Positions 12,762 to 43,772 of a stretch of 64,000 bases of DNA are shown here, in pieces. The stretch spans positions 62,555 to 126,554 of the forward strand of contig CAVYXV010000013.1 in assembly GCA_963772585.1 (NCBI GenBank), given 5' to 3'. This DNA comes from an uncultured Planctomycetota bacterium. GTDB lineage: Bacteria > Planctomycetota > PLA2 > JAEUHO01. Below the pieces are notes generated by a model, which ran no database searches, had not been told where the DNA came from, and saw nothing but the letters and a program-made list of their open reading frames with translations. Position 1 is the first letter of the stretch. Each line of letters starts with the position of its first letter. The position numbers and the translations under genes are program-made.

Positions 12762-13940
12762 ATGATGACGCCGCTCCACATGCAGGACCTCGAAGCACTT
12801 CTCGCGCACCGCGAAGGTCCCTGCGTCTCCATCTACATGCCGACGCATCGCACGGGTCACGAGATGCAGCAGGACACGATCCGTCTCAAGAACCTCCTCA
12901 AGGCCTCGGAACGCGAGCTCCAGGGCGTGGCAATTCGGGAGACGTCGGCGCAGGAGATCCTGAAGCCGGCCCGTGACCTGTTGAACGAGGGACCGTTCTG
13001 GGAGAACCTCGGGGACGGGCTCGCCGTGTTCCTCGCACCGGGGTTCTCGCGCATCTACCGCCTTCCCGCGCCCTTCAGCGAGCTCCACGTCGTCGCCGGC
13101 GCATTCCACGTGAAGCGGCTCCTCCCGATCGTGGGCGGCGACGGGCGCTTCTACGTCCTGGCGCTCAGCCAGAACGAAGTGCGCCTGCTACGGGGCACGC
13201 GATTCCACGTGGAGGAACTGGAGCCCGACGGCATGCCCAAGAGCCTGCGGGAAGCGCTCTGGATGGACCACCCCGAGAAGAGCCTCCAGTTCCACACGGG
13301 CTCCTCCGCCGCCACGACGGGCGACGGAGGCTCCCGGCGAGCGGCCGTCTTCCACGGGCAGGGCGGGCCCGCCGCCATCGAGAAGTCGAAGCTGGAGCGG
13401 TACTTCCGCCGCGTCGACGACGGCCTGAGGGAGCACCTGGCCAACGGCAAGGACCCCCTCGTCCTCGCCGGCGTGGATCACTACTTCCCGATCTACCGGG
13501 AGATCAGCAAGGTCCCGACCCTGGAGAAGGAGGGCGTCCCCGGCAACCCGGAGAAACTCAGCATGAGGGAGCTCCACGACCGCGCCTGGGCCATCGTCGA
13601 ACCCCAGTTCCGGAAGGCCGAGACCGACGCGATCGACCGCTACCGGGCGCACGCCGGCCAGGGCAAGACGGCGGCGGGCCTCGAAGCCGTCCTCCCGGCC
13701 GCGCACCATGGTCGGGTGGACACGCTGCTGGTCGCCGCCGGTCGCCAGCAGTGGGGCGCGTGGGTCGCCGGGAGTGGCGCCGACGGGAGCGTCGTCATCC
13801 ACGATCACTACGAGCAGGGCGACCGCGACCTGCTCGACGTCGCGGCGGCCGCCACCTTGAAGTCGGGCGGTCGGGTCTTCCCCCTGGCGGTGGAACGGAT
13901 TCCCGACGGCGCGGATGCGCTGGCCATCCTCCGCTACTGA
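12762..13940 (+). CDS. eRF1/Pelota-like (bacterial aeRF1-type, baeRF family) protein
   Basis: ATG-ATG start with AAGGGA 10 nt upstream. Central segment AVFHGQGGPAAIEKSKLERYFRRV resembles the eRF1 GGQ loop (HGRGGQSALRFARLR). C-terminal GRVDTLLVAAG matches the eRF1/Dom34 domain-3 signature VETLLV. Confidence 0.65.
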   Translation: MMTPLHMQDLEALLAHREGPCVSIYMPTHRTGHEMQQDTIRLKNLLKASERELQGVAIRETSAQEILKPARDLLNEGPFWENLGDGLAVFLAPGFSRIYRLPAPFSELHVVAGAFHVKRLLPIVGGDGRFYVLALSQNEVRLLRGTRFHVEELEPDGMPKSLREALWMDHPEKSLQFHTGSSAATTGDGGSRRAAVFHGQGGPAAIEKSKLERYFRRVDDGLREHLANGKDPLVLAGVDHYFPIYREISKVPTLEKEGVPGNPEKLSMRELHDRAWAIVEPQFRKAETDAIDRYRAHAGQGKTAAGLEAVLPAAHHGRVDTLLVAAGRQQWGAWVAGSGADGSVVIHDHYEQGDRDLLDVAAAATLKSGGRVFPLAVERIPDGADALAILRY

Positions 13941-26882: not shown

Positions 26883-27332
26883 TCAGTCGGGACGGTAGGC
26901 GCCGTAGCGCCGGAGATTCGTGCTCGCCGTGGCGGCCTGGGCGCTGAGCAGGGCGCGCACGCGCCGCGCGAGGGGACGGTTCAGGGCGTCCAGGGTCCGG
27001 GCGACCACCTCGCGCTCCGAAGCGACCAGCTCGTCGAGCAGGGCTTGGGTGTCCGCTTGCGCCGCCGTCTCGAAGGCGCCGAGCCAGGGCTGGTGGAAGG
27101 CGCCGGCCGGGACCCCTTCGGGCTGCGGCAGGCCGCCGAGGCTCTCGATGGCCTCGCTGAGTTGCCGGACGACCGCCCGGCGCTCGCTCTCGGACGCCAG
27201 GAACGCCAGCGACAGACGGCGGTCGTGGGCGCACTCGCGGGCTCGGCCGTACGCCCGCTCACCGGCCTTGGAGAGTTGCAGAAGGTCTTGCAGGACGTCG
27301 AGGGTCTCTTGCGTGGTCAGCCGGGTCATCAT
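26883..27332 (-). CDS. DUF2383 (PA2169-family) four-helix-bundle ferritin-like protein
   Basis: ATG-ATG at 27332/27329 with GGAGG upstream. Conserved LxxLLQLSKDGExxY and RRxxxAxxLxxLG motifs of the TIGR02284 family. Paralogue at 37427-37870. Confidence 0.7.
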   Translation of the reverse strand: MMTRLTTQETLDVLQDLLQLSKAGERAYGRARECAHDRRLSLAFLASESERRAVVRQLSEAIESLGGLPQPEGVPAGAFHQPWLGAFETAAQADTQALLDELVASEREVVARTLDALNRPLARRVRALLSAQAATASTNLRRYGAYRPD

Positions 27333-27446
27333 GGTCGCGGGCGCCTCCGTGAATGCGCCGGCGAGTCGCCGCCGCAAGGGCACGTCGTCCTCTGCATGCT
27401 CGTCCCGCACGACGCACACGCCGTGCCGCCTCGCCCGCATCATCAT

Positions 27447-27480
27447 TCACGAGCGGACGTTGAATCGCGGGGACCTGGCA
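27447..27480 (+). promoter_or_regulatory. copy (a) of a recurrent GG-N10-GC motif (sigma-54 -24/-12-like)
   Basis: cacgagcGGacgttgaatcGCggggacc; shares the ACGAACGGACGTTGMATCGCG core with copies at 29262, 35562 and 52881. Confidence 0.35.
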
Positions 27481-27565
27481 CGCATCTCGCGCCTTGCCTC
27501 GCGGCCCGGTCGGATGCGGCGCCTCCGACAGCCCGGCGCTTCGGACGTCCCACCCCCGGCCGTGA

Positions 27566-28070
27566 CCGTACGACGACGGCGAGTTCCAACGGCCCTTCGA
27601 GGCCCTGGCCGGCGCGGGTCACCCCTGCGCGGTCGTCGGATGCGACGCGGGCGAGCGACATCACCCGCCTTTGCGGAGGCAGCCACGCGACGGTGGAAGT
27701 CGCCGCGTCCCAGGCCCGCGCCACCGACTTCGACGCCCTGGTCGTCCCCGGCGGCCACGGCCCGGACCACCTGCGCCATCGCGACGACGTGGCGCGCTTC
27801 ACGCGGGACTTCTTCACCTCGAGGAAGCTCGTCGCCGCGATCGGTCACGGCGGTCAGGTCCTGATCGACGCCGGCGTCGTCGAGGGTCGCAGGGTGACGT
27901 CGGCGCCCGCGATCCAGCGGGATCTCGAGAACGCCGGGTCGGAGTGGCTCGACGTCGAGGTCGTCGTGGACGGCAACCTGATTACGTCGCGGGGCGCGAC
28001 CGACATCCACAGCTTCATCCGCGTGCGGAAGAAGGAGGTGGGCGCCGATTCGTCGTCGGAGGCGACGTAG
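27566..28070 (+). pseudogene. DJ-1/PfpI family protein, N-terminally truncated and frameshifted near 27655
   Basis: One frame encodes DDGEFQRPFEALAGAGHPCAVVG.DAGE and opens right after a TGA. A second frame continues ITRLCGGSHATVEV...DALVVPGGHGP...AAIGHGGQVL...VVDGNLITSR. No start codon covers the first beta-strand. Confidence 0.5.
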
Positions 28071-28540
28071 CGACGTGCCCGGCGGCCCGCCAGGACGCCG
28101 GTAGCTCGATCGCCCGGGTGCGGACGATCGCCAGCATCAACAGCACGAGGCCGGTCACCATGTCGCTCTGGGCCGGCCCGTCGGCATCGCCGCCCGCCGC
28201 GAGGTAGACGGAGGCAACGAGCCATCCGGCGGCACCGGTGACGAGAACGAGGGGACGGTCGGTTCCGTCCTTCATGCCCGCCGCGCGGCAAACGCCCCTC
28301 CACCCGCCCCGGCTGACGGCCCCGTTCATCGGCAATGGCGGAACGCCCCATCGGAACGACGGACTCCGACCCCTTCGGAGGCGGACGCGCGGGGCGGCGG
28401 CACTCCCGGCGGCGTGCCGGCCCGCATGCCGGGGCGAAGACGCGTACGGGGCGGGCCTCGCTGCCCACCGCTTCGGCCCGTGGGATCGGCACGGCTTCTG
28501 CGTGCCCTGCCAAGCCCCTCGACAAGGAAGGGGACCTCCC

Positions 28541-28828
28541 ATGAGCACCGACACCGACATGCGAGACGTGGAGACACGGCTGGAGAAGATCGGCCTCCAC
28601 CTGCAACAGATGACGCTCGATGCCAAGAAGGCGGGCTTGAAGCTGAAGGAGGAACGAATCGGGCTGCTGTCCGATCTCCAGCGGCGCTACGACGACGCCC
28701 GGCGACGGCTGGACGCCACGAAGACCTCCGCGGCGAACCGGGCCTCGACGGCGGAGCAGGAGTTCCGCAAGGCCTGGGAGGAGTTGAAGCTTCACTACGA
28801 GCGCGTCGCCAGGGGCCCCGCCGACTAG
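28541..28828 (+). CDS. small coiled-coil hypothetical protein (95 aa)
   Basis: ATG with AAGGAAGGGGA upstream. Heptad-like sequence with no known domain. Similar in layout to the proteins at 28886 and 38871. Confidence 0.45.
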   Translation: MSTDTDMRDVETRLEKIGLHLQQMTLDAKKAGLKLKEERIGLLSDLQRRYDDARRRLDATKTSAANRASTAEQEFRKAWEELKLHYERVARGPAD

Positions 28829-28885
28829 CCCACGGGCTGGACGACGGACCCCGAACGACGATCACGAGTCCATGCGGGGTCGATC

Positions 28886-29227
28886 ATGACGGAGGTTCGG
28901 AATAGCGGTACTGGCGATGCGAAGGCGTTCCGCCAGGAGGCCCGCGCGAGGCTGTCGCAAGAAGGCCCCGAGATGATCCGGCTGTTGTCCAAGGCACGGA
29001 GCCACCTCGCCATGCAGAGCCGGGGGCTGAGCGAGCAGATCGAGGCCTTGGTGCATCATCTGTCGTGCGTCCGGACCAAGGTCGATCGCATCCAGGCTGC
29101 GCGGGGTGAGGACCTCGAGGCGCTCGAGAGCGAGCTTGCGGAGGGTTGGACCGCGCTCGAGGGTTGCGCGGCACGCATCCAGGACAAGCTCGAGCGGTCC
29201 GCGCGGACGCACGCCCAGGGCAGGTAG
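28886..29227 (+). CDS. small coiled-coil hypothetical protein (113 aa)
   Basis: Open frame with helical/coiled-coil character. Adjacent to and co-oriented with the 28541 gene. Confidence 0.4.
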   Translation: MTEVRNSGTGDAKAFRQEARARLSQEGPEMIRLLSKARSHLAMQSRGLSEQIEALVHHLSCVRTKVDRIQAARGEDLEALESELAEGWTALEGCAARIQDKLERSARTHAQGR

Positions 29228-29261
29228 CTCGAAGGCGCCTTCCCGTTCGGACGTCCGCGAC

Positions 29262-29310
29262 GGCCACGAACGGACGTCCCGTCGCGCGCTTCGCGGGGAG
29301 TGCAGGCACG
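29262..29310 (+). promoter_or_regulatory. copy (b) of the recurrent GG-N10-GC motif plus an inverted partner, upstream of the sigma-54 activator gene
   Basis: ccacgaacGGacgtcccgtcGCgcgcttcgcggggagtgcaggc, then acggccgttcgtg as the inverted half. Confidence 0.35.
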
Positions 29311-29449
29311 ACGCCAACGGCCGTTCGTGCATAGTGCGGGCTGGATGCGGGATTCCCCCACGCCAACCTCTGGACGGCGGCTTGCGTACGACACCACGGG
29401 GCCACCCGCGCCCGTGCGCGCCGGTGTACTCTCGCGCTCCTGGGATTGG

Positions 29450-30889
<1,440 letters not shown>

Positions 30890-31013
30890 CCAGGCCACCC
30901 GCACGCGTTCGACGCTTGCGCGCGACGACCTCCCGAGCGCGTGCGACCCGGGTGGGATGCGACCGCCCGGTGCCCGCGTCCCACCACGGAGCCCTGCGCG
31001 GCGGGGGACAATG

Positions 31014-31032
31014 GGCCCGCTCATCGCAGTCG
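31014..31032 (+). promoter_or_regulatory. candidate sigma-54 promoter for the EncFtn-encapsulin operon
   Basis: tGGGCCCgctcaTCGCA matches the -24 GG / -12 GC elements with exact 10-nt spacing. The -12 GC lies 31 nt upstream of ATG 31061. A sigma-54 activator gene is immediately upstream. Confidence 0.4.
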
Positions 31033-31060
31033 AGGGAGCGCGTCCCAAGGAGGTCCCGAC

Positions 31061-31447
31061 ATGTCGGAAAGCAGCGGCGGTCTTCACGAGGCGAAGAGCG
31101 ATCTCGGCCCGGAGACCGTGGACCGGCACCGGGCGATCGCGTCCCTGATGGAAGAACTCCAGGCGATCGACTGGTACGAGCAACGCGTCCAGGCGACGCA
31201 GGACGAAACGCTCGGCGCGATCCTCGCGCACAACCGGGACGAGGAGAAGGAGCACGCCGCCATGCTGCTGGAGTGGCTTCGGCGCCATGATCCCGCCCTG
31301 GACGGCGAGTTGAGGACCTACCTCTTCCGCGACGGAGACATCACGACCTTGGAAGGGGCGGGAGCCGAGGGGGCCGACGACACGGGCAGTACGCCGCCCC
31401 GAACGACCCCGGACGGTTCGCTGGGCATCGGGGACATGGGAGGATGA
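31061..31447 (+). CDS. encapsulated ferritin-like cargo protein (EncFtn) with a C-terminal encapsulin targeting peptide
   Basis: AAGGAGG RBS. EncFtn ferroxidase motif (IDWYEQRV...ILAHNRDEEKEHAAMLLEWLRR). C-terminal ...DGSLGIGDMGG resembles the SLGIGxL cargo-loading peptide. Confidence 0.85.
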   Translation: MSESSGGLHEAKSDLGPETVDRHRAIASLMEELQAIDWYEQRVQATQDETLGAILAHNRDEEKEHAAMLLEWLRRHDPALDGELRTYLFRDGDITTLEGAGAEGADDTGSTPPRTTPDGSLGIGDMGG

Positions 31448-31463
31448 GAAGGAACCGGATGCA

Positions 31464-31590
31464 GTGTTTCGGCCGGCTGCGGAGCCACGACGCGCCTTGC
31501 CCCTTCGACGGGCTCACGGCGGCTGCGCCGCTCGCGGCTCCTCGCGAGGCCTCGGACCCTCGCCCCATTCCCTCAGACCCTCCGAGAGGA
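31464..31590. repeat. third member of the 165-bp repeat family, between encFtn and the encapsulin shell gene
   Basis: Shares ttcggccggctgcgg.(g/a)ccacga at its 5' end and cctcgg.ccctcg.ccc.tt.c.tca...ccctc.gagag.a at its 3' end with the tandem units at 12312-12646. Its 3' end supplies the shell-gene RBS (gagagga). Confidence 0.6.
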
Positions 31591-31597
31591 GACGACG

Positions 31598-32404
31598 ATG
31601 TTGTTCCTGCGGCGTGAACAGGCCCCGGTCTCGGAGGCCGCGTGGGCCCGGATCGACGCGGAGGCGAGACGCACGTTGCGCCTCCGCATGGGCGCTCGCA
31701 AGTTCTTCGACGTCCTCGGTCCGAAGGGGTGGGCCGACGCGTGCGTGAATCTCGGACGCAAGGCCGAGACCACGGGATTCGACCCCGGCGTGGACGCCGC
31801 AACGCGGCTCGTCCAGCCGCTGCTGGAGCTCCGTGTCCCGTTCACGCTGTCGCGCGCGGACCTGGATGACGTGGACCGGGGTTGCCCGAACCCCGATCTC
31901 GATCCCGTGATCGACGCGGCGAAGAGCCTCGCTCGCGCCGAAGGCCGGGTGCTCTTCCACGGCCACGCGGACTCGGGCGTGGTCGGCATGGCGGACGGCG
32001 GCACGCACGATCCGCTGCCGCTCCCCGAAGATCCGGAAGGCATTCCGGGCGCGGCGGCCGCCGCGGTCAACCTGCTCCGGGACGAGGGCATCGAAGGGCC
32101 CTACGGCATCGCGCTCGGGTCCCGGCCCTACACCGGCCTCGTGCAGGCGCCCGCCTCCGGCGGCTATCCCGCTCTCGATCGGCTTCGCAACGTCCTCAGC
32201 GGCCCGGTCGTCTGGGCGCCGTCGCTCGAGGGCGCGGTGGTGCTGAGCATGCGCGGCGGCGACTTCGAGTTGCACGTCGGCCAGGACGCCTCGATCGGCT
32301 TCCACTCGCACACGCCGGAAGACGTCCACTTCTTCCTGGTGGAGACCTTCACGATGCTGAATCTCACGCCCGAAGCGGCGATCGGCCTCCAGTACGGAGG
32401 ATAG
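31598..32404 (+). CDS. family-1 encapsulin nanocompartment shell protein (linocin M18 / CFP29 type)
   Basis: MLFLRREQAPVSEAAW...GRKFFDV, ELRVPFTL, RGCPNPDL, DEGIEGPYGIALG, GGDFELHVGQDASIGF, VHFFLVETFT. These are collinear with the T. maritima and M. xanthus encapsulin sequences. Confidence 0.9.
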   Translation: MLFLRREQAPVSEAAWARIDAEARRTLRLRMGARKFFDVLGPKGWADACVNLGRKAETTGFDPGVDAATRLVQPLLELRVPFTLSRADLDDVDRGCPNPDLDPVIDAAKSLARAEGRVLFHGHADSGVVGMADGGTHDPLPLPEDPEGIPGAAAAAVNLLRDEGIEGPYGIALGSRPYTGLVQAPASGGYPALDRLRNVLSGPVVWAPSLEGAVVLSMRGGDFELHVGQDASIGFHSHTPEDVHFFLVETFTMLNLTPEAAIGLQYGG

Positions 32405-32478
32405 ATGGCGGGGGACGTCGGAGCGTGTCTCGCCGGCGGGCGACCGAACCCCGTCGCCTGCCCGACAACGCCCGTCCG

Positions 32479-32904
32479 TCAGCTCCTCGGGGGCGCCGCG
32501 CTGATCTTCCCGAGTGCGGATCGGGAGGCGTGGTCCTCGGCGAGATCGCCCAGGGAGATGACGCCGACGGGTTTCCCGCCGTCGTCCGCCACGGGCAGGC
32601 GCCGCACCGCCTTCTCCTTCATGAGCTCGATCGCTCGATCCGGCGCGTCCGACATCGACAGGGTGACGAGGTCCCCGCCGCACGCGTTCTCGCACGTCGT
32701 CTTCCCGGGGTCCTTGCCCTCGGCGAGCACGCGCACGACGATGTCCCGGTCGGTCAGGATCCCCGTGAGCTTCCCCTTCGTGTCGGTCAGAAGCGCGTTG
32801 CCGACGTTGGAGTGTCGCATCCGTTGCGCGGCATCCAGGACGGAGGTCGTGAACTCCAGCGTCACCAGGTCCTTGCTCATCAACTCCGCGAGTGACGTCG
32901 TCAT
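32479..32904 (-). CDS. CBS-pair domain protein
   Basis: ATG at 32904 with AAGGAG 8 nt upstream. Two CBS motifs (VGNALLTD.KGKLTGILTDRDIV and RRLPVADDGGKPVGVISLGDL). Confidence 0.8.
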   Translation of the reverse strand: MTTSLAELMSKDLVTLEFTTSVLDAAQRMRHSNVGNALLTDTKGKLTGILTDRDIVVRVLAEGKDPGKTTCENACGGDLVTLSMSDAPDRAIELMKEKAVRRLPVADDGGKPVGVISLGDLAEDHASRSALGKISAAPPRS

Positions 32905-33011
32905 GGTCCTGGCTCCTTCTCGTGGCAGGCTCGCGGCCTCCCCGCGTTTCGGGGAGCGCCGAGGCCGTGGGCACCGCACGCTCCGTGCCGCCGTCGTCCT
33001 TCGTCGGGGCG

Positions 33012-33418
33012 CTACGCGCGGACGTGCGCGTAGAACTCCCGAACCCGCCGATCCATCGCCGCATCGACCGGCTCCTCCGCGTCGTACGCGGCACGCTCCC
33101 GGACCTTGCGACCTGGTACGGCCCTCGCGAGAACGCCCTCGGGCCCGTGGATCCCGGTCAGCACGGTCGGAGGCAGGAGGGCGCTTCGACCGGAGTGCCA
33201 GGGGCCGGTCCCCACCACCACGAAGGAGAGTTCCCGGGTCTCCGCGTCGAGGCGGAAGCCGCGCACATGTCCGATGGCCGGCTCGCCCACGGGACGACGC
33301 CGTAGCCGTGCACCTCGCGGCTGGCGCGGAGGTGGCGCTCGTCGCCGTCCCTCGCGGCGAAGCGGAAACCGTCAAGGCTCTCGATGCTGTGCAACCTCTC
33401 CTGCTCCGTCGGCACCAT
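33012..33418 (-). CDS. PRC-barrel domain protein; apparent frameshift between 33290 and 33160
   Basis: ATG 33418 lies 33 nt after the upstream gene stop and opens LDGFRFAARDGDERHL. A second frame continues VRGFRLDAETRELSFVVVGTGPW...LLPP, a PRC-barrel signature. Either one frameshifted gene or a 92-aa GTG-initiated gene (33290-33012). Confidence 0.4.
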
Positions 33419-33451
33419 CGTTGCGTTCCACGGAAGGGGACAGGGGTGCCG

Positions 33452-33739
33452 TCAGTCCCGGCTCCCGTGGCTTTCGAGCTGGTCGATGTCGCGCCGGAGA
33501 TGCTCGAGCCTCTCTACGATCTCGGGCCTCTGCGACTTCATGTGATCGGGCCCGAGTTGTGACCGTTTCACGAGATCCAGGATCTCCGCGTGCCGATCGC
33601 GAAGGCTCGCCCGCTGTTTCGTGAAGAGAGGGCTGGGGCCTTTGCCGGGCATCGGAACGCGAGGCGCGAGCACGTCGATCCGCTCTCCGTAGTCGTCCAT
33701 GGTGGACTTCCACTCGTCGAACGGGGGAGGCTGTGTCAT
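33452..33739 (-). CDS. small hypothetical protein (95 aa), first gene of a three-gene minus-strand operon
   Basis: ATG at 33739 with GGGAGGAG RBS. Hydrophilic. No known domain. Confidence 0.45.
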   Translation of the reverse strand: MTQPPPFDEWKSTMDDYGERIDVLAPRVPMPGKGPSPLFTKQRASLRDRHAEILDLVKRSQLGPDHMKSQRPEIVERLEHLRRDIDQLESHGSRD

Positions 33740-33895
33740 GGGGATCTCCTCCCGAATTCCGAACGCGGATGCCCTCTGGCACTCGATGACGGACCCGTGT
33801 CCGGCGAAGAACACGCGGCAAGCGCTGTGCCGGGGGAACGCGGCGCGTTTCGTTCCGCGCATGCGGCGGCCGCGGGGCCGGTGGCGGGCTGCCCG

Positions 33896-34813
33896 CTACG
33901 CCGTCGCCTTCTCGCCCAGGCGGACGAGCGCGCGCTGCCGGCCCTCGTCGAGCCGCCGGGCCCTCCGCGCGATGTCCGCCCACGGGTCGTCGCGGGCTCC
34001 GAGGCGCCGGAGGATGTTCTCCAGGCGCCACCGTCTCGCGTCGAGGTCCGGATCGTCGAGCTCGTCCCACTCCAGCGGGGTGGCCACCGGTGCCCCTTCA
34101 CGCGCCCTCACGGCGTACGGAGCGACCGCCGTCTGGCCGCGGGCGTTCCGCATCACGTCGAGATACACGCGGTCGCCTCGCTTCGTCTTCCGCACCTCCA
34201 GCGTCAGCGCTCGGGGCTGACGCCGTACGAGAACCTCCGCGGCCCCGCGTGCGAACGCACGGACTTCATCGAAGGTCCTTTCTGGCCGGATGGGGACCAC
34301 GACGTGCAGCCCCCGAGAACCCGTCGTCTGGACGAAAGGAACGAGATCGATCTCCCGCATGAGCTCCCCCAGTCGTCGGGCCGCCTCGCGAATCCTCCCG
34401 AAGGGAGCGCCCGCGGGGGGATCCACATCGAAGACGATCCGGTCGGGGTGGTCGAGGTCCGGCTCCCTGCTCAGCCAGACGTGCAGCGTGATGCACGCCT
34501 GATCGACCAGGAAGGCGAGGCTGGAGCGGCTCTGTGCCGTCAGCTGTCGCTGGTGGCCCTCGGCGGTCCGCACCGTCGTGCGGTGGACCCAGTCGGGCGT
34601 CCTGGCGGGCACGCGCTTCTGGTAGAAGCCCTCGCCCTCGATGCCGTCGGGGTATCGCTGGAGCGTGAGCGGCCGGCCCCGGAGGTGGCGCAGCATGGTC
34701 TCGCCGACCCCCACGTAGTAATCCAGGAGATCCCGCTTCGTCACGCCGCAATCCGGGAACAGGACCTTGTCGGGATGGGACAGTTCGACGCGCCCGAACC
34801 CATGGGCCATCAT
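33896..34813 (-). CDS. stand-alone LigD polymerase/primase domain (NHEJ PolDom)
   Basis: ATG-ATG with AAGGAGG RBS. HPDKVLFPD.GVTKRDLLDYY, GRPLTLQRYPDGI, FYQKRVP, and SRGLHVVVPI motifs of the LigD polymerase domain. Confidence 0.85.
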   Translation of the reverse strand: MMAHGFGRVELSHPDKVLFPDCGVTKRDLLDYYVGVGETMLRHLRGRPLTLQRYPDGIEGEGFYQKRVPARTPDWVHRTTVRTAEGHQRQLTAQSRSSLAFLVDQACITLHVWLSREPDLDHPDRIVFDVDPPAGAPFGRIREAARRLGELMREIDLVPFVQTTGSRGLHVVVPIRPERTFDEVRAFARGAAEVLVRRQPRALTLEVRKTKRGDRVYLDVMRNARGQTAVAPYAVRAREGAPVATPLEWDELDDPDLDARRWRLENILRRLGARDDPWADIARRARRLDEGRQRALVRLGEKATA

Positions 34814-34896
34814 TGAAGGTCCTCCTTGGCGCGTCCCCCCGCCCGGTCCCTCGCTTGCGGGCCGTGCCGCGCCCCGGAGCGCGGTCGGAGCGGACC

Positions 34897-35514
34897 ATGA
34901 GCACACGGAAGGAACCGCTGGAAACGTACGCGAGCCGGCGCTCGTTCGGCAAGACGCCCGAGCCGGATGTCGCCGACGACAGCCCGGTTCGCTGGCGAAA
35001 GGCCGACAATCCCATCTTCGTGATCCAGAAGCACGCCGCCAGCCGTCTGCACTACGACTTCCGTCTCGAAGTGGACGGGGTGTTGAAGTCCTGGGCCGTG
35101 CCCAAGGGTCCTTCCACGGATCCCCGGGAGAAACGCCTTGCGGTGGAGACGGAGGACCACCCCCTCGCGTACGCCGACTTCGAAGGGGTGATCCCCGAAG
35201 GCGAGTACGGGGCGGGGCGCGTGATCGTCTGGGACGCGGGGCCGTACCGCGTCCTGCCGGGCGAGGACGGCGAGGCACCGGACGCGGGCGAGGCGCTGCG
35301 GAAGGGGTACCTCGACGTCTGGCTCGAGGGTCGCAAGGTCCGCGGCGGATACGCCTTGATCCACGCGAAGGTCGGAGGGAAGCACGAGAACTGGCTCCTG
35401 GTCAAGCACGACGACGACGCGGCGGACGCGCGAAGGAAGCCCACGAGCACGCAACCCGAGAGCGTCGTGTCCGGGCGGACGATCGAGGAGATCGGTGACG
35501 ACGAGGACCCCTGA
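34897..35514 (+). CDS. stand-alone LigD 3'-phosphoesterase domain
   Basis: FVIQKHAASRLHYDFRLE.DGVLKSWAVPKGPS, TEDHPL.YADFEG.IPEGEYGAG; divergent from the polymerase-domain gene. Confidence 0.85.
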   Translation: MSTRKEPLETYASRRSFGKTPEPDVADDSPVRWRKADNPIFVIQKHAASRLHYDFRLEVDGVLKSWAVPKGPSTDPREKRLAVETEDHPLAYADFEGVIPEGEYGAGRVIVWDAGPYRVLPGEDGEAPDAGEALRKGYLDVWLEGRKVRGGYALIHAKVGGKHENWLLVKHDDDAADARRKPTSTQPESVVSGRTIEEIGDDEDP

Positions 35515-35561
35515 CGGGGCCCGTCGCCACACTCCCAATGCTGCGGGCTAGTTGGCACTAC

Positions 35562-35605
35562 CCACGAACTGGCGTTGAATCGCGCGCTTCGCGGGGAATG
35601 CAGGC
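35562..35605 (+). promoter_or_regulatory. copy (c) of the recurrent motif: CCACGAACTGGCGTTGAATCGCGCGCTTCGCGGGGAATGCAGGC
   Basis: Lies between the LigD phosphoesterase stop and the BON gene stop. TGGCGT-N5-ATCGC resembles sigma-54 -24/-12 with a 9-nt spacer. Its 3' half is near-identical to the copy at 29281. Confidence 0.35.
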
Positions 35606-37242
35606 TAGTCACCGAGCCCGGCCTCTGCGTCCGTAGAGGAAGGGGTCCCTTCCTCGTCCTTCGGCAGCGGCGGCAGCTTCGGAGGATTCACGTCCAGGTC
35701 GTCCACGACCCATCCGGCTCCCGCTTCGTACGCATTCATGATCGCGGCGTGCTTCTCGCTCCAGCTGTCCACCTCGCCCGAGAGACGCACCACGCCGTTC
35801 TCGACCGCGACGTCCACGTCCATCAGGTCCACGAACGGGCTCCACCAGATCTCCTGTTCCACGCGGCTCTTCAGCTTCCGGTCGCTGATCGGCACGCTGT
35901 AAGACGACGGCTGATACCACCTGACGTTCGCCCACGCGAGATCGTCCACGTACGGTCCGTAGACCAGCGGCGTGTAGTGATCGCGGACGTCGAGGGCGTT
36001 GTCCACGTCTTGGACCCCGCGAGCCCTGGAAACCAGGTCCTCGGCCCGCATCTTCTCCCAATAGGTGTTGACGGTCCCGTCCAGGCGAATCTTCCCGTCG
36101 TCAGCCGTGATCTCGATGTCGTGGGAGTCCACGATGGGATCTCGTACCACGTTTCCGAGAGCGCGCATCTCGAGCTCGTCGTCGGCGACGTGCGGGGGAC
36201 GCACCTTCACGCGATTCCACACCCCGAGAACCCCGGTCACGTTCCGGGCGTCGGCGCCTGCGCAGCGCCGCGCCTTCAGATTGTCCACCGTACCTCGGAG
36301 GGTCACGAAACCGTCCTGCAACGTCGGCTCGATGTCGAACGAATGGACCCGCGGATCGACGGAGAGCGCATCGATGACCGCCGCCTTCACGTCCTCAACG
36401 GCACGCCGGGCCGGTCTTCCTCTCACGTCGGGGCCTTCGGTCCAGTCGCGGACGGAGACGCCGCTCACGTCCACGCTCTTCACCCCCATGACGTAGGCAT
36501 CACCCTCGGCTCTGTCCTTCTCCGCAGCGCTACGGACCACGCCGACGAGGCGCACGCCACCGTCTTCCACATCGACCTGGAGCAGACGGTCATCGACACG
36601 AACGTCCCAATCCAGGGAACGGGCGATCTCGCTTTGGATCTCGCCGTCCGAGCGAGGTGTCATGAGATTCACGGACATCGCGTCCTCGACGTCCAGCACG
36701 CCGTCTACGCTCTTCGCGACCTTCCGTGCGAGCTGGTCCTCGCGCCAGGAGTCCACCGCGCCGTGCAGGGTGACGACCCCGCCCCCGACGTTCACCTTCA
36801 ACTCGTAGGCGTCCGTTGCAGGATCCGCGTGGAGGGCCTCCTGGACGTCCTTCTTGACGATGGCGTCGGATCGCACGGAATCCGGATCGATCTTCAGGCG
36901 ATTCACCACGCCTCGCACGCCACGCATGGCCTTGGCGATGCGGACGGCCCGCTCTTTCTCCAGGAGGCTGTCCACCTCCCCCTCGAGGGTGACGATGCCC
37001 CCGACGACGCGGACGTCCACGTCGTCGAGCGTGACGACGGGATCGTGGGCGATCTGGTCCTCGACGGCGATCAGCACGCTCGGGTCGTCGAGCGAGGGCG
37101 TATTCGGCTCGTCGGCGAAGGCAGGGCCGGACCGGACGACGACGACGGCCGCGGCGAGAACGGCAAGGACCCCGACGAAGGCCGGTCCCCCCATGACGCG
37201 AAGACGTCGCGTCGACGCGTGGATGCGGTTGTCGTATCTCAT
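35605..37242 (-). CDS. secreted protein with about six BON (OsmY-like) domains
   Basis: Signal peptide. Repeated ~70-aa units with the BON signature (V.V.GG.VTL.G.V.S...R..A....GV..V.N.L.V). Confidence 0.85.
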   Translation of the reverse strand: MRYDNRIHASTRRLRVMGGPAFVGVLAVLAAAVVVVRSGPAFADEPNTPSLDDPSVLIAVEDQIAHDPVVTLDDVDVRVVGGIVTLEGEVDSLLEKERAVRIAKAMRGVRGVVNRLKIDPDSVRSDAIVKKDVQEALHADPATDAYELKVNVGGGVVTLHGAVDSWREDQLARKVAKSVDGVLDVEDAMSVNLMTPRSDGEIQSEIARSLDWDVRVDDRLLQVDVEDGGVRLVGVVRSAAEKDRAEGDAYVMGVKSVDVSGVSVRDWTEGPDVRGRPARRAVEDVKAAVIDALSVDPRVHSFDIEPTLQDGFVTLRGTVDNLKARRCAGADARNVTGVLGVWNRVKVRPPHVADDELEMRALGNVVRDPIVDSHDIEITADDGKIRLDGTVNTYWEKMRAEDLVSRARGVQDVDNALDVRDHYTPLVYGPYVDDLAWANVRWYQPSSYSVPISDRKLKSRVEQEIWWSPFVDLMDVDVAVENGVVRLSGEVDSWSEKHAAIMNAYEAGAGWVVDDLDVNPPKLPPLPKDEEGTPSSTDAEAGLGD

Positions 37243-37426
37243 CGGTCGTACTCCTCTCTGACGCTGCCCGCGTCACGACACGCAGGGGGCGCAACCCGCA
37301 TGCCGCCGTCTCCGGGCAGGGGGGCGTGTCCCGGGAAGGGTGAATCGGAGGGAGAGCCACCAGGGGTTTCGGAACCCCCGGCACGGACCGCAAGACGACG
37401 GGGGGAGGGCCTGGACCCTCCGACGT

Positions 37427-37870
37427 TCAGGCGCGGTGCGCCGTGAGCCCCTCGAATCGGCGCAGATTCGCCTTTGCTCCGGCCGCCTGGCTCGTGACGA
37501 GGCCGCGAATGTCGTCGCCGAGAGGCGCCGCCATGGCCTCGTCGTAGTGCTTCACCGCGGCACGTTCTGCACGGACGATCTCCTCGAGCAGCGTCTTGTC
37601 GGCGCTCCCGGAGAGCGTGCTGCGTGCCTCCAGCCACGTCCTGCCAAAGGCCCCCGGCACCGTCCCTCGCTCCGCCGGTCTCCCGCCCAGCTCCTCGATC
37701 TTGTCCACGAGTTGTTGCGCCGCGATCGCGCACGACTCGAGACTCGTCTCGAACGCCGCCTTCAGCGTCTCGTCGTCGGTGATCTCCTTGGCCCGCCCGA
37801 AGGTCTCTTCGCCGTCCTTCGAAACGTGGAGCAGATCGCCCAGGAGACTGATGGTCGCCGCCTCGTCCAT
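37427..37870 (-). CDS. DUF2383 (PA2169-family) four-helix-bundle protein, second paralogue
   Basis: LLGDLLHVSKDGEETFGRA, RAERAAVKHYDEA; same family as 26883-27332. Confidence 0.7.
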   Translation of the reverse strand: MDEAATISLLGDLLHVSKDGEETFGRAKEITDDETLKAAFETSLESCAIAAQQLVDKIEELGGRPAERGTVPGAFGRTWLEARSTLSGSADKTLLEEIVRAERAAVKHYDEAMAAPLGDDIRGLVTSQAAGAKANLRRFEGLTAHRA

Positions 37871-38214
37871 GGTCTTGTCATCTCCGGATGGGTTTCATTC
37901 GGGGATCGAGGCCTGTCGTCATGCCTATCTTCGATCCTGCTTGCCCTCCGGCAAATCACGGACCGGGCGTCGATCCGCCCGCCTACCCCGGACCGCGGCG
38001 CCGGGGAGGTCGTCAGGCCCCGGTCCGGGCGCACTCCGGGAGGGCGCTTCGAGCCGGCAGGTTCGCGCTTCGCTCCCCGCGATTCTCGCCCTTTGCCGGC
38101 CGACGGCGACTCTCACCGGCACTGCCCGCCCCTTCTTCGACCGCGACGCGGACCCTCTGGTGATCGCACTCCAGGCCGATCCAGGAGCCGCGGAAACGGA
38201 TCCGGAAGTCCAGC

Positions 38215-38780
38215 CGACGGATCGCGACGGGGAGCCTCGGATTCAGCCGGAGGGTGCCGTCCGGGATCTCGAGCCCCGTGAGACCGCGCTGGACCCGGTC
38301 GACCGTGCTTTCCATCGCTCCCACGTGGATGCCCTCGGGGGATGGGAGGGACTGATCGCCAAGAACGCCGCCTCTCCCTACGTCGGAGGGCGATCGCCCC
38401 ACGGGCTCGAGTTCAAGTGCCACGGCGAACAGGAGTTCGTCGTCGCCGGCTTCACCGACCCCGAGGCCGACGAGGACTGGATCGGCGCCCTGGTTCTGGG
38501 GATCTACGAGAAGGGCGATCTCGTCCACGCCGGCCGGGTCGGTACGGGCTTCGACGACGACGAGCGAGGGGACCTTCGACGGCGTCTGGCGCGCTCGGAG
38601 CGCAGGTCCCCACCGTTCCCGGCGGAGGTGCCCCACCCGTCCGAGGTGCCCTGGACGACGCCCAGGATGGTCGTGCAGGTCGCCTTCACGGGGTGGACGA
38701 GGAAGGGGCGGCTTCGTCACCCCCGCTACCTGGGAATCCGACACGACAAGGACCCGACCGCGGTCCACCGGGAGGGCTGA
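38215..38780 (+). pseudogene. remnant of an ATP-dependent DNA ligase (LigD ligase domain, C-terminal motifs IV-VI and OB fold only)
   Basis: EGLIAKNAASPYVGGRS..W.K.K, EFVVAGF, and RHPRYLGIRHDKDP motifs. There is no motif I (KxDGxR) in any frame, and only ~345 nt of space before the upstream gene. Confidence 0.5.
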
Positions 38781-38870
38781 CCGTCCCCCCCGCCCGCCGC
38801 TTCGCCCATGGCGCTGCGGCACGAGATATGCTTGAGAGGGCATGGCCACCGGGCCGACTTCGGAGCCCCC

Positions 38871-39164
38871 ATGACGAGACGAACGGCCTTCGACGATCTG
38901 GAAGCGAACATCGCGACGCTCCGGGCGGACCTCGATCGACTCCGTACGGACTTCACGGACCTCCACTGGGAGAAACACCCCACGGAGAAGACCCTCCTCG
39001 AAGAGGCGGAACAGAGCTACAGCAAGACCCTCGCCAACCTGGAGCGGGTCCGGCTCCAGGCCCTGGCGGACTCGGACGAGTTGCCGGAGGATCTGCGGGC
39101 GAGCTGGCACGAGCTCCGACACGCCTTCCAGCGCCTCGTGGAGCACCGCTCCCGCGCCACCTGA
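38871..39164 (+). CDS. small coiled-coil hypothetical protein (97 aa)
   Basis: ATG with GGAG upstream. Helical heptads (LEANIATLRADLDRLRTDF...). Layout resembles the 28541 and 28886 proteins. Confidence 0.45.
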   Translation: MTRRTAFDDLEANIATLRADLDRLRTDFTDLHWEKHPTEKTLLEEAEQSYSKTLANLERVRLQALADSDELPEDLRASWHELRHAFQRLVEHRSRAT

Positions 39165-39256
39165 TCCGCGCACGCGCGACGTCCTCGATTGGCATGCGGG
39201 ATGCGACTTCCCGGTCGGACCGGTCGCAGGAGTGCGACCGCTCCGGGAGATCGATC

Positions 39257-39754
39257 GTGCACCGACACGTGCTGCTTCCCGTGGACGGTTCCGAAGGGAC
39301 CCGACTCGCCGTTGCCGAGGTCTGCAACTGGGGGGAGTCGATGCGACCCGATCGGCTCACGCTCCTCCAGGTGCTCGGGCCCTATCCGCCCGCCCTGCTC
39401 GAGAGCGGCGGATCGAGCGACCCCGAAGAAGAACGCAGGCAGCACGATCGGCTCGCTCAGGAGCGGCGCCGGTGGGATCGTGAGGCCGAAGAAAGGGCCA
39501 GGCCGGTCGTGGAGGCCGCCCTCCAGGGGCTCCACGCCGCAGGCTACGGAAAGGACGTGGAGGTCGTGCACACCACGCTCATCCCCGAAGACGACGTGGC
39601 GCGCAGGGTGATCGAGGTGGCGCGGGACCACCATTGCGATCGCATCGTCGTCGGCCGCTCGCCCGGCGACGACGAAGGCCGACTCGACGCCTCGGTCGTG
39701 GACAAGCTCGAAGACCTTGCCAGCGGCGACGTGGACACCCTCGTCGTCGGCTGA
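39257..39754 (+). CDS. universal stress protein (UspA family)
   Basis: GTG at 39257 with GGGAGA 7 nt upstream. HVLLPVDGSEG...RIVVGRSPG...VLVV-type Usp motifs. Confidence 0.75.
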   Translation: MHRHVLLPVDGSEGTRLAVAEVCNWGESMRPDRLTLLQVLGPYPPALLESGGSSDPEEERRQHDRLAQERRRWDREAEERARPVVEAALQGLHAAGYGKDVEVVHTTLIPEDDVARRVIEVARDHHCDRIVVGRSPGDDEGRLDASVVDKLEDLASGDVDTLVVG

Positions 39755-39842
39755 CCCGCCGTCCGCCCGACCCCACGTCGGGATTCGGCCCCCGCCGCGG
39801 TTTCCCGTTGGAATTCCTGCGCGAAACGAGAAGAATCCCGCC

Positions 39843-41231
39843 ATGCGCCCCTTTGCATGCGTATCCAGTGGGCTCTCGATCCTCCTGTTCGCGGCTCTGC
39901 TCCCCTTCGTCACGGACGCCCGGGCGGAAGATCCGGACACGGCCGCTCCGCCTCTCGATTTCCGAGAGATCATCCACCAGGCGAAGAGCCGCGTCTTTCC
40001 CGCCGTCCTCTTCGTCCGGTGCATCAGCGAGTCGCACGAGGGGGGGAAGCGGGAGACGCAGCAGGTGTCCGGAAGCGGCGTCCTGATCACCGCCGACGGG
40101 GAGTTCCTCACCAACTGGCACGTCGTGGAGAAGGCCGTGGAGGTCCGATGCCTGCTGCTCGACGGGCGGGCGTTTCCGGCGAAGGTGCTGGGTACGGACA
40201 AGTCGACGGATCTGGCCCTCTGCCGTCTCGAGGGCGGAGAGGACACAGGGCCCTTCCCCTGCGCGAGTCTCGGCGACTCGGACGCGCTGACCGAGGGCGA
40301 CTTCGTGATGGCGATGGGAGCACCCTGGGGCCTCAGCCGATCGGTATCCCTCGGCATCGTCGCGTGCACGCGACGCTACCTTCCCGGCAACAGCGAGTAC
40401 AGCCTCTGGATCCAGACGGACGCATCCATCAGTCCCGGCAACTCGGGCGGCCCCCTCGTGAACACCGACGGCGCGGTCATCGGTCTCAACACGCGCGGGG
40501 TCCGCAGCGGCGGCGACATGGGCTTCGCCGTGCCCTCCGCGACGATCCGCCTCGTCCTCGACCACCTCCGCAAGGACGATCGGGTCCCGTGGAGCTGGAG
40601 CGGCCTGCTCCTGCAACCGCTGCGGGACTTCGACAAGGACATGGTCTACGAAGGCGATCACGGCGTGATCGTCACCGGGACGGAACCGGAGAGTCCCGCC
40701 CGGCGGGCCGGCATCAAGGCCCGGGATCGTCTCCTCGCGGTGAACGGCCGACCGCTGGACGCCCGGGTGACGGAAGACCTTCCTGCCCTCCGTCGGCTGC
40801 TCGCTCTGCTCCCCGGCGGAGAGCCCGCCCGCTTCGAGGTGCAGAGGGATGGCCAGACGATCGAGGTGGAGTTCGCGCCGCGCGCGAAAGGCAGTGTCGA
40901 AGGCGAGGAGCTGGACCTCCCGCGCTGGGACTTCTCCGTGAAGGAGATCAACCAGTTCGACAATCCAGAGTTGTTCTTCTACCGAAAGAAGGGCGTATTC
41001 GTCCAGGGGATCCGTCAACCCGGCAACGCGGCGGATGCCGGGTTGCGGCGGGGCGACATCATCGTGAGGGTCGGGTCGGACGACGTCGAGACCCTCGATC
41101 GGCTGAAGGCCGTCCACGAGGCCGCCGTGGCCGACGTGGGGCGCCATCCGAAGATCGTCCTGACCGTCCTTCGCCAGGGCCTCATGCGGCAGATCGTTCT
41201 CGACTTCGCACGGGATTACGAACGGAAGTAG
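39843..41231 (+). CDS. HtrA/DegP/DegQ-family periplasmic serine protease with two PDZ domains
   Basis: Signal peptide. Catalytic triad context (TNWHVV, D..LCRL, GNSGGPLVN). Two PDZ segments. Confidence 0.85.
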   Translation: MRPFACVSSGLSILLFAALLPFVTDARAEDPDTAAPPLDFREIIHQAKSRVFPAVLFVRCISESHEGGKRETQQVSGSGVLITADGEFLTNWHVVEKAVEVRCLLLDGRAFPAKVLGTDKSTDLALCRLEGGEDTGPFPCASLGDSDALTEGDFVMAMGAPWGLSRSVSLGIVACTRRYLPGNSEYSLWIQTDASISPGNSGGPLVNTDGAVIGLNTRGVRSGGDMGFAVPSATIRLVLDHLRKDDRVPWSWSGLLLQPLRDFDKDMVYEGDHGVIVTGTEPESPARRAGIKARDRLLAVNGRPLDARVTEDLPALRRLLALLPGGEPARFEVQRDGQTIEVEFAPRAKGSVEGEELDLPRWDFSVKEINQFDNPELFFYRKKGVFVQGIRQPGNAADAGLRRGDIIVRVGSDDVETLDRLKAVHEAAVADVGRHPKIVLTVLRQGLMRQIVLDFARDYERK

Positions 41232-43540: not shown

Positions 43541-43772
43541 CTACGTGGCGCGCCATCCGCCCACGATGAGGCCGTTCAGGAAGATCACGAGGGAGACGAC
43601 GAGCAGGATCTTCGCGATGCCGGCGGCGCCGACCGCGATGCCCGTGAAACCTGGCCTGCACACGAGCCCGTCCGTGAACGACTCTCGTCTTCCCCGAGAC
43701 CGATTCCCGGCGAGTCTTCGACAGCGCGGCGACGAGCGCGGCCACGAAAAGGAGGACGCTCCATCCGAGCAC
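43541..43772 (-). CDS. possible GlsB/YeaQ/YmgE-like small membrane protein, frameshifted (low confidence)
   Basis: GTG 43772 with GGAGG 6 nt upstream gives MLGWSVLLFVAALVAALSK... (TM1). A second frame continues GFTGIAVGAAGIAKILLVVSLVIFLNGLIVGGWRAT (TM2) to the stop at 43541. Confidence 0.3.

Follow-up and report, generated by a model that had tools for sequence, protein, structure and literature searches.

A probable sigma-54 regulon for stress protection organised around its own activator gene in a Planctomycetota genome

Gene content of the island

The DNA analysed here, called the window throughout, is a 64-kb stretch of a 292-kb metagenome-assembled contig from an uncultured Planctomycetota bacterium, and our subject is an island within it, from 26883 to probably 43422, in which genes of stress-protection families surround a gene for a sigma-54 enhancer-binding protein (EBP, hereafter the activator) and in which sigma-54 promoter sequences recur. 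The window is about 70% GC and raw listings of its open reading frames (ORFs) therefore consist mostly of spurious frames. Genes were picked by third-position GC (GC3) and frame plot and then checked against Pfam and NCBIfam, which confirmed nearly all gene calls of a preliminary description of this DNA. That description had named two DUF2383 paralogues, a decayed DJ-1/PfpI gene, a CBS protein, EncFtn plus encapsulin, stand-alone LigD Pol and PE genes with a ligase remnant, UspA, HtrA and an embedded sigma-54 EBP, all of which stand; its three small coiled-coil proteins have become four small helical proteins (cc1-cc4), its PRC-barrel and OsmY-like proteins need the qualifications given below, and of its limits (26883-41231) the right one should probably move outward. 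Parts of the locus recur, identical and gap-free, on independent short assemblies.

Both DUF2383 (PA2169-family) proteins are matched by PF09537. DUF2383a (26883..27332, minus strand), a four-helix-bundle protein whose start we set at its MM codons downstream of the promoter, scores 51 bits and falls slightly below the TIGR02284 cutoff (42.3 against 44.8 bits), and DUF2383b (37427..37870, minus strand) scores 82 bits and clears that cutoff (71.8 against 44.8). The DJ-1/PfpI gene (27514..28070, plus strand; PF01965) carries at least two frameshifts, and no intact ORF was found: merging three frames extends the profile match from positions 44-160 in one frame to 11-160 of 165 (domain score 121-136 bits, 136 after the merge), and glycine occupies the position of the nucleophilic cysteine (AAIGHGG motif). 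We regard it as a pseudogene because three frames are needed to read it and the catalytic Cys is replaced by Gly. The stand-alone CBS-pair protein of 141 aa (32479..32904, minus strand) is matched by PF00571 in two stretches, and the identical 141-aa gene call is present in L001 and L002. Next to it lies a decayed PRC-barrel-like gene in two frames (33012..33418, minus strand) that stays below threshold for PF05239 even when frame-corrected (12.2 bits against a cutoff of 21.2). Its homology is supported by an alignment with repeat 2 of a true double PRC protein (34.5 bits) in the related locus L092 (blastp E = 9e-6, small database), and its sequence is identical and ungapped in independent assemblies.

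The 6xBON protein (35605..37242, minus strand) has an N-terminal hydrophobic, signal-like segment suggesting secretion and six stretches matched by PF04972. It scores 120 bits against the 174-bit cutoff of the OsmY equivalog NF007858, and OsmY itself is a periplasmic protein with two BON domains, which limits the likeness to the domain level. At the right end the 165-aa Usp protein (39257..39754, plus strand; PF00582), for which we propose a GTG start behind a GGGAG ribosome-binding site and which resembles Usp genes in the related loci L085 and L087, is followed by an HtrA/DegP-type serine protease with a signal peptide and two PDZ domains (39843..41231, plus strand; Trypsin_2 and PDZ matches). 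A secreted 723-aa protein with PDZ domains by Pfam (41251..43422, plus strand) begins 19 bp past HtrA on the same strand; it is probably the last gene of the Usp-HtrA operon, and the island therefore probably ends at 43422. Just beyond it lies a gene for a DUF1328 small membrane protein (43541-43700, minus strand), upstream of which no sigma-54 site was found.

The EncFtn cargo protein (31061..31447, plus strand; PF22277, TIGR04535 135.9 against a cutoff of 125) and a family-1 encapsulin shell (31598..32404, plus strand; PF04454 258 bits, NF041155 265.5 against 100) are encoded 150 bp apart on the same strand, the arrangement of a family-1 encapsulin with EncFtn cargo. EncFtn has a GSLGIG-type C-terminal tail (...DGSLGIGDMGG), which, judged by eye, resembles the GSLxIGSL-type cargo targeting tag. 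The order activator-EncFtn is also found in L091, where an encapsulin fragment follows EncFtn, and an intergenic alignment of the window with L091 revealed no convincing conserved promoter in the activator-EncFtn gap; a weak variant upstream of EncFtn, GGCCCGC..ATYGC, was not taken as evidence. Since the order is kept in L091 and no separate promoter is conserved, transcription of the EncFtn-encapsulin pair probably reads through from the activator operon.

Stand-alone LigD Pol (polymerase/primase; 33896..34813, minus strand; PF21686 301 bits, TIGR02778 278 against 214.7) and LigD PE (3'-phosphoesterase; 34897..35514, plus strand; PF13298, TIGR02777 210 against 144) are divergently oriented. 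No sigma-54 site was found upstream of Pol and only a weak CGGTCC-N6-TTGC element upstream of PE, and both genes are absent from every related locus examined. An ATP-dependent DNA ligase remnant (38290..38780, plus strand) is matched by PF04679 only, covering the end of the adenylation domain and the OB domain; no adenylation domain was detected in three frames over the upstream 650 bp (37871-38520), and no Ku domain among the scanned ORFs of the window, in which 52-58 kb is not fully annotated. The reduction of the ligase to a remnant makes DNA end repair at this locus doubtful, and the end-repair arm claimed in the preliminary description is not borne out: Pol and PE are probably bystanders. 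A 15-mer, GGCACGG[CA]CCGCAAG, is shared between the Pol/PE divergent region (~34850-34866, minus strand) and the region upstream of the BON promoter (~37378-37394, plus strand); its GG-N8-GC spacing does not suit sigma-54, and it is possibly the site of another regulator.

The four small proteins have 31-40% charged residues and GRAVY values of -0.6 to -1.0. cc1 (95 aa, helical; 28541..28828, plus strand; 40% charged, GRAVY -1.0) matches no Pfam family and has orthologues in the same position in L085 and L087 at 33% identity. cc2 (28886..29227, plus strand; 113 aa, or 84 aa) is discussed with the activator below. cc3 (95 aa; 33452..33739, minus strand) is a charged protein for which no homologue was found in the related loci. 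cc4 (97 aa, helical; 38871..39164, plus strand; 36% charged) is weakly similar to cc1 and its orthologues and is possibly a distant cc1 paralogue. Homology between cc1 and cc2 is undemonstrated (hhalign probability 13%), and none of cc1-cc4 gave a PspA-family match at E <= 1. An uncertain ORF (28015..28275, minus strand; 86 aa) between the DJ-1 pseudogene and the cc1 promoter region, supported by a GC3 frame signal and a hydrophobic translation and without family match, may encode a membrane protein.

The activator and its partner gene cc2

The activator (29450..30889, plus strand) consists of a degenerate receiver, an AAA+ domain and a Fis-type helix-turn-helix (HTH) domain, and the identical 479-aa gene call is found in public records (P0001). 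The central domain matches Sigma54_activat (PF00158, 235 bits, E = 3.7e-70) followed by AAA_lid_14, the translation contains HEKGAFTGAH with a GAFTGA motif that is invariant in the orthologue alignment, and the C-terminus matches HTH_8 (30 bits against a cutoff of 22), all as expected of a bacterial EBP. None of the named EBP equivalogs (NtrC, ZraR, PspF, RtcR, NorR and others) reaches its NCBIfam cutoff. The N-terminal 150 residues are receiver-like and remain below the Response_reg cutoff (14 against 30 bits); across the family the phospho-acceptor column holds D, E, Q or S, and the conserved Lys is absent. No histidine kinase is encoded near the activator in the island or in the related loci L085-L088. 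Since the receiver lacks a conserved phospho-acceptor and no kinase is adjacent, the signal probably does not arrive by phosphorylation.

The gene preceding the activator, cc2, is its conserved partner. A cc2 orthologue (36-58% identity) lies directly upstream of the EBP gene in every close orthologous locus, that is in L085, L086, L087, L088, L091 and the P0002 contig, and the cc2 family is very small, with about 5 clusters in a set of 1.84 billion representative proteins. The AlphaFold model of cc2 (pLDDT 87.6) has three helices arranged as a bundle. A fold search returned no PDB neighbour with E < 0.1, and the PspA structure 4whe ranked 27th (TM 0.41, E = 2.1).

Sigma-54 promoters are concentrated in the island

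The preliminary description had based its repeated -24/-12 elements on GG-N10-GC, a pattern with 1,601 matches in the window that carries no information at 70% GC. The elements themselves are well founded in another form. A recurrent cGGCA(C/T)G-N4-nTGC was first recognised by reading the intergenic regions, and sites of this lineage do not conserve T at -26, T at -15 or the final W. In the 14.3-kb island the core GGCAY-N6-TGC is found at 8 places, where 300 shuffles that preserve dinucleotides give 0.81 ± 1.0 (maximum 5); the other 49.7 kb has it 3 times against 3.0 expected, each time inside a gene. Seven of the eight island sites are intergenic, lie 28-82 nt upstream of start codons and are co-oriented with the gene that follows. 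Because the core pattern had been picked after viewing the data, a matrix was built from relatives only, with 11 sites, all from other genomes, and with spacer columns masked (an earlier relatives' matrix that included the spacer columns was over-fitted and has been replaced). Its top 7 matches over the 64 kb and both strands all fall in the island, and at a threshold of 12 the island yields 7 matches, shuffles yield 0.6 ± 0.8 (maximum 3 of 60) and the rest of the window yields 0.

The seven sites define seven transcription units, namely DUF2383a, cc1-cc2, CBS, cc3 with the PRC-like remnant, 6xBON, cc4 and Usp-HtrA-PDZ, and each has a strict core. DUF2383a is preceded by GGCACGGCGTGTGC (27414..27427, minus strand; matrix score 13.5), 82 nt upstream of the ATG, and the cc1-cc2 cassette, a unit that probably continues into the activator gene, by GGCACGGCTTCTGC (28488..28501, plus strand; 14.2). 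On the minus strand follow GGCACGGAGCGTGC for CBS (32976..32989; 14.1), GGCACAGCGCTTGC for cc3 and the PRC-like gene (33818..33831; 10.6), which scores lowest of the seven and comes eleventh in the ranking by the independent matrix, and GGCATGCGGGTTGC for 6xBON (37291..37304; 16.5), the best in the whole window. On the plus strand GGCACGAGATATGC (38818..38831; 13.5) lies 40 nt upstream of the cc4 ATG, and GGCATGCGGGATGC (39191..39204; 14.6) lies 53 nt upstream of the Usp GTG at 39257. HtrA has no strict site of its own; it and the PDZ gene can be accounted for as downstream members of the Usp operon.

Strict cores also stand before the cc1 or cc2 orthologue of the cassette in L085, L086, L087 and L091 and before the BON and CBS genes of L086, equivalent to the window promoters of these genes; in L088 only a weaker GGCCC-type element precedes cc2. 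Weak variants in the window (GGCCCGC..ATYGC at EncFtn, CGGTCC-N6-TTGC at DUF2383b and PE, TGGACG-N5-TTGC at the activator) were not counted; the only element of DUF2383b, CGGTCCGTGATTTGCC, is weak and lies 98 nt upstream. An uncertain, degenerate sigma-54-like element, TGGCACGCATCTCGCG (27476..27491, plus strand), precedes the DJ-1 pseudogene and has CGC in place of TGC at -12. Intrinsic terminators were predicted at chance level.

Among the top 7 matrix matches is the eighth strict-core site of the island, TCGGCACCATCGTTGCGT (33409-33426, plus strand; 12.9), which overlaps the start-codon region of the PRC-like gene on the opposite strand and could be an antisense promoter or a coding-sequence coincidence. 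A further variant, CGG(A/C/T)(C/A)(C/T)G(C/G)GGATTGC, which may represent a weaker class of sigma-54 promoter, occurs in L085 (8818-8831, minus strand), L087 (7404-7417, minus strand), L091 (2974-2987, plus strand) and L094 (~7205-7220, plus strand); the genes downstream encode a conserved 300-354-aa protein of unknown function (followed by DUF2383), EncFtn in L091, and in L094 an 82-aa protein with CBS.

A candidate operator upstream of the promoters

Alignment of the cassette promoters exposed tandem dyads, the clearest of which is a 21-bp palindrome, RTCGGA-N9-TCCGAY, a good candidate for the operator of the activator. Some 120 nt separate the copy ATCGGAACGACGGACTCCGAC (28350..28370) from the cc1 promoter downstream of it; a degenerate partner dyad stands 23 bp further upstream, and the copy is conserved in the alignment with L085, L086 and L087. 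The copy GTCGGATGCGGCGCCTCCGAC (27509..27529), a perfect 6-bp inverted repeat with a 9-nt spacer, lies about 85 nt upstream of the DUF2383a promoter. In relatives the palindrome is found at the cassette of L085, L086, L087 and L091, before the CBS promoter of L086 and before DUF2383 in L087; dyads at these last two genes imply that such gene classes can be direct targets. Overall it is placed 45-125 nt upstream of the cassette promoter and some others.

Counted strand-wise, the palindrome occurs 4 times in the window against 0.39 expected and 8 times in close relatives against about 0.5, with 13 occurrences in 1.17 Mb of unrelated loci. All but one of the copies in the window and close relatives adjoin sigma-54 promoters. 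The half-site TCCGAC is found 6 times in the -220 to -20 region of the window promoters against 0.78 expected (P ~2e-4). The less specific single dyad CGGA-N8-9-TCCG, taken alone, is unenriched (19 against 13.7). The constant position of cc2 before the activator, together with the sigma-54 promoter and palindrome in front, suggests that the cc1-cc2-activator cassette is an autoregulatory operon.

Related activators lie beside similar genes

The preliminary description had proposed a comparison of synteny, and in this comparison orthologous activators (67-73% identity over the full length, plus one at 54%) lie beside like stress genes with sigma-54 promoters in front. In L085 and L087 a cc1 orthologue precedes cc2, and the neighbours include DUF2383 and Usp. 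In L086 BON and CBS genes are followed by sucrose-phosphate synthase and sucrose synthase genes, and L085 also carries sucrose synthesis genes and RtcB-RtcA. More distantly, the activator relative of L092 (50% identity) is divergent from a 102aa-DUF2383-PRC operon with a textbook TGGCACG-N4-TTGCA promoter; HtrA lies about 500 bp downstream of it on the same strand, and a ribosome hibernation factor is encoded further along. The family member of L094 adjoins a CBS gene and that of L095 a complete ectoine operon.

A scan of genome contigs with the complete activator brought up an excess of generic AAA+ cores and no orthologue, and a metagenome scan with an alignment of the N-terminal domain found only two distant loci. 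The matches of the former, 80 unrelated EBP loci, were reused as a negative control. When searched by tblastn with the island proteins, the 1.17 Mb around these 80 genes gave a single match, to HtrA, and in the 122 kb around related activators the island families are common.

Several features of these loci are recorded in their own right. Between the cc1 and cc2 orthologues lies a CxxC...CxxC zinc-ribbon micro-ORF of 45-57 aa (L085 9385-9558, L087 9378-9515; 80% identical); the window, with a gap of 57 bp between cc1 and cc2, lacks it. The compatible-solute operons beside family members span L086 1331-8780, L085 452-5077 and L095 683-7834, with sucrose-phosphate synthase, sucrose synthase and PfkB in the first two and asd-ask-ectABCD in the third; the sucrose genes of L086 may belong to a single long operon that follows the CBS gene with its sigma-54 promoter, and in L095 a TGGCACG-N4-TTGG element with a non-canonical -12 faces the ectoine operon. 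RtcB and RtcA of L085 (11574-13822) lie directly downstream of the orthologous activator, which is no RtcR (no CARF domain, score below cutoff).

Discussion

A proposed locally organised regulon and the evidence against it

We propose that the region from ~26.9 to ~43.4 kb constitutes a sigma-54 regulon, organised locally, that protects against envelope, osmotic and general stress, a reading to which we give a probability of roughly two in three (0.68). The likeliest signal would be osmotic, desiccation or envelope stress, osmotic or desiccation stress being favoured because BON, CBS, and sucrose or ectoine operons lie beside family members. Such a stress would release or stimulate the activator, possibly through the adjacent cc2, which could be a partner or, as PspA is to PspF, an anti-activator; by this analogy cc2 may modulate the activator. 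The activator would then bind RTCGGA-N9-TCCGAY as a dimer or hexamer, hydrolyse ATP and open sigma-54 holoenzyme complexes at the island promoters. In doing so it would switch on its own operon (positive autoregulation), would carry EncFtn-encapsulin along by read-through, and would further activate the DUF2383a, CBS, cc3, 6xBON, cc4 and Usp-HtrA-PDZ promoters. The single sigma-54 regulon of the preliminary description is thus retained in part: seven promoters and a local activator speak for it, Pol and PE probably drop out, and the iron-sequestration arm is tied to it by conserved adjacency of EncFtn-encapsulin only, with no clear promoter of its own. The dormant, non-growing state which that description assigned to the island was read from gene content, and the comparison with relatives points more narrowly to osmotic or desiccation stress.

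A number of observations weigh against this proposal, the whole case for which is built from sequence. Both the core pattern and the palindrome were defined post hoc from the data, and only the promoter received a fully independent test; the palindrome counts include the loci in which the motif was discovered. The canonical 7-position score (TGGCAC-N5-TTGCW) has no window-wide enrichment (8 against 13.8 expected). Strict sites are missing at EncFtn, Enc, Pol, PE, DUF2383b and HtrA, where only weak variants are seen, and TCGGCACCATCGTTGCGT points antisense into cc3 and LigD Pol, unexplained. The full palindrome stands at only 2 of the 7 window promoters (DUF2383a and cc1), CBS, cc4, Usp and BON having half-sites only and cc3 none, and an unbiased search of 9-mers for an upstream site common to the promoters gave no more than shuffles did. 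rpoN is not within the 64-kb window, the family member of L093 has no stress neighbours, and cc2 has the fold of a generic helical bundle and owes its assigned role to synteny alone.

The distribution of the palindrome bears most directly on the possibility that the promoters are real and belong to several regulons, the local activator running its own cassette and DUF2383a and EBPs encoded elsewhere driving CBS, cc3, BON, cc4 and Usp-HtrA. With full palindromes at two promoters only, other activators may indeed drive the remaining ones; the lack of a half-site at cc3 and of a common upstream motif in the unbiased search point the same way, and EBPs are typically many in such genomes, to judge from thousands of family matches and from the EBP-rich phyla described in a published survey (PMC12316311). 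However, half-sites are enriched upstream of 5 of the 7 promoters, full dyads precede CBS in L086 and DUF2383 in L087, and the same gene classes accompany this activator subfamily in several genomes, unlike unrelated EBPs. We therefore consider a division among several regulons unlikely, although it deserves more weight than any of the alternatives that follow. That the island was acquired horizontally or accreted, its content reflecting history and now decaying, would fit its GC content (0.67-0.70 against 0.72-0.74 in the left flank), the decay of three of its genes (DJ-1, PRC-like and ligase) and the different gene order in each relative. A lower GC is, however, what numerous short genes separated by long intergenic stretches would produce, tRNA and Rfam scans gave no match, and Pfam found no integrase or transposase in the island. 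Flanks and island moreover share Planctomycetota affinities: among named sequences, those closest to a housekeeping pseudouridine synthase belong to Planctomycetota metagenome-assembled genomes (64% identity), and the named matches of the activator family, at ~50% identity, are likewise Planctomycetota. The shared promoters argue for function, and an acquired origin, which we think improbable, would also be compatible with the regulon.

The remaining two explanations deny the sigma-54 promoters themselves. EcfG or RpoS governs much the same gene sets in Alphaproteobacteria and Pseudomonas, and the island might be a general stress regulon of another sigma factor (an EcfG-type ECF, RpoS-like or SigB-like), the sigma-54-like motifs being incidental. 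Of the two matches to the EcfG-type sequence GGAAC-N16-17-CGTT in the window neither lies in the island or between genes, sigma-70-type promoters gave no matches, and the sigma-54 core is tenfold enriched, correctly placed and conserved in relatives, which makes dependence on another sigma factor very improbable. Chance, in the sense that a GC-rich genome yields GG...GC matches everywhere and that the genes cluster by coincidence, would account for the abundance of GG-N10-GC and for the unenriched canonical score. It is rejected by the shuffle, rest-of-window and independent-matrix controls and by orientation, position and conservation, and of all the explanations we regard it as the one with the least claim.

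Comparison with known systems

Psp, Rtc and Zra are well-known sigma-54-dependent stress systems. The proposed regulon resembles Psp as a sigma-54-driven envelope/stress response with an activator probably not controlled by phosphorylation and with a small all-helical protein encoded beside that activator behind a sigma-54 promoter, forming a feedback loop (in which we infer the link of cc2). It differs in that PspF has no N-terminal domain, whereas the island activator has a degenerate receiver and scores 257 against the 443 cutoff of the PspF model TIGR02974; cc2 is a 3-helix bundle with neither a PspA/PF04012 match nor a significant structural match to PspA, and it is co-oriented with the activator, whereas the Psp partner and activator are divergent. 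With NtrC and ZraR the activator shares the REC-like, AAA+, Fis-HTH architecture and dyad-symmetric upstream sites ~100 nt from the promoter, but it falls outside that group with an unconserved acceptor Asp, a missing Lys, a sub-threshold Response_reg match and no nearby kinase. Likeness to RtcR-RtcBA lies in a sigma-54 activator beside stress-repair genes, rtcB-rtcA being downstream of the L085 orthologue; in contrast to RtcR, however, the island activator has no CARF-type N-terminal domain, scores 318 against the 650 cutoff of NF038308 in a match that spans residues 151-463 only, and has no rtcBA in the window.

In gene content the closest parallels are the general stress regulons under EcfG/PhyR in Alphaproteobacteria and the RpoS-dependent PA2134-PA2190 region of Pseudomonas aeruginosa. 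DUF2383/PA2169, BON, PRC, CsbD-like small proteins, Ku/LigD and Usp belong to gene sets under EcfG or RpoS, and the island shares with these regulons a clustering of genes for DUF2383, BON/OsmY, PRC-barrel and small charged proteins, for parts of LigD, for Usp and for the synthesis of compatible solutes. The difference is that the island would use sigma-54 with an ATPase activator rather than an ECF factor or RpoS and has no EcfG promoter.

A computational survey in PLoS One (2025; PMC12316311) predicted that the sigma-54 promoters of Planctomycetia are over-represented at genes for UspA-family proteins, proteases, chaperones and MscS. In the passages searched, that work operates at the level of COG enrichment and names no specific activator subfamily, partner, binding site or clustered island of this type. 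Our literature searches (sigma-54 with encapsulin, and with DUF2383 or BON) returned no description of such a system. What appears to be new is an activator subfamily whose receiver is degenerate, the rare cc2 that accompanies it together with a candidate operator, and a clustered regulon of RpoS/EcfG-like content.

To our knowledge, next to nothing has been established about the way Planctomycetota perceive general stress and react to it. If confirmed, the island would provide a concrete circuit consisting of a promoter consensus, a candidate operator, a seemingly phosphorylation-independent activator and a rare partner. It would tie sigma-54 to genes of envelope, osmotic and iron-oxidative protection, encapsulin included, add a sigma-54 route to the general-stress solutions built on RpoS, SigB and EcfG, and give a regulatory context to DUF2383/PA2169, multi-BON proteins and cc1-cc4. 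A lesson for annotation is that bare GG-N10-GC matching is useless in GC-rich genomes and that a lineage-tuned core motif works. More speculatively, the activator subfamily with its obligate cc2 might be the master switch of a sigma-54 general (osmotic/desiccation) stress response in this Planctomycetota lineage, with cc2 as a new class of EBP-controlling partner and cc1, cc3, cc4 and the 102/104-aa proteins of L092 as new sigma-54-dependent protectants. We hold this extension only tentatively and think it rather less likely than its negation; if true, the switch would be functionally equivalent to the RpoS, SigB or EcfG systems, built on an ATP-driven activator.

Other features of the window

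In the flanks of the island are genes for Ser/Thr kinases with TPR or WD40 repeats fused to them, for an FHA-GAF-cyclase protein and for HEAT-repeat proteins. Unrelated to the island, a gene at 12762-13940 (plus strand) encodes a bacterial protein of the archaeo-eukaryotic release-factor type (baeRF family 3/7, E = 2e-48) and adjoins the gene of a Ser/Thr kinase (1,292 aa; AAA_16 and TPR domains). At the other end of the window an HlyD/CusB-like membrane-fusion gene (58025-60691, 888 aa) contains a 249-bp tandem repeat (59750-60622, 3.5 copies) encoding repeated YHS metal-binding domains; the copies are 97% identical, and the duplication is therefore very recent.

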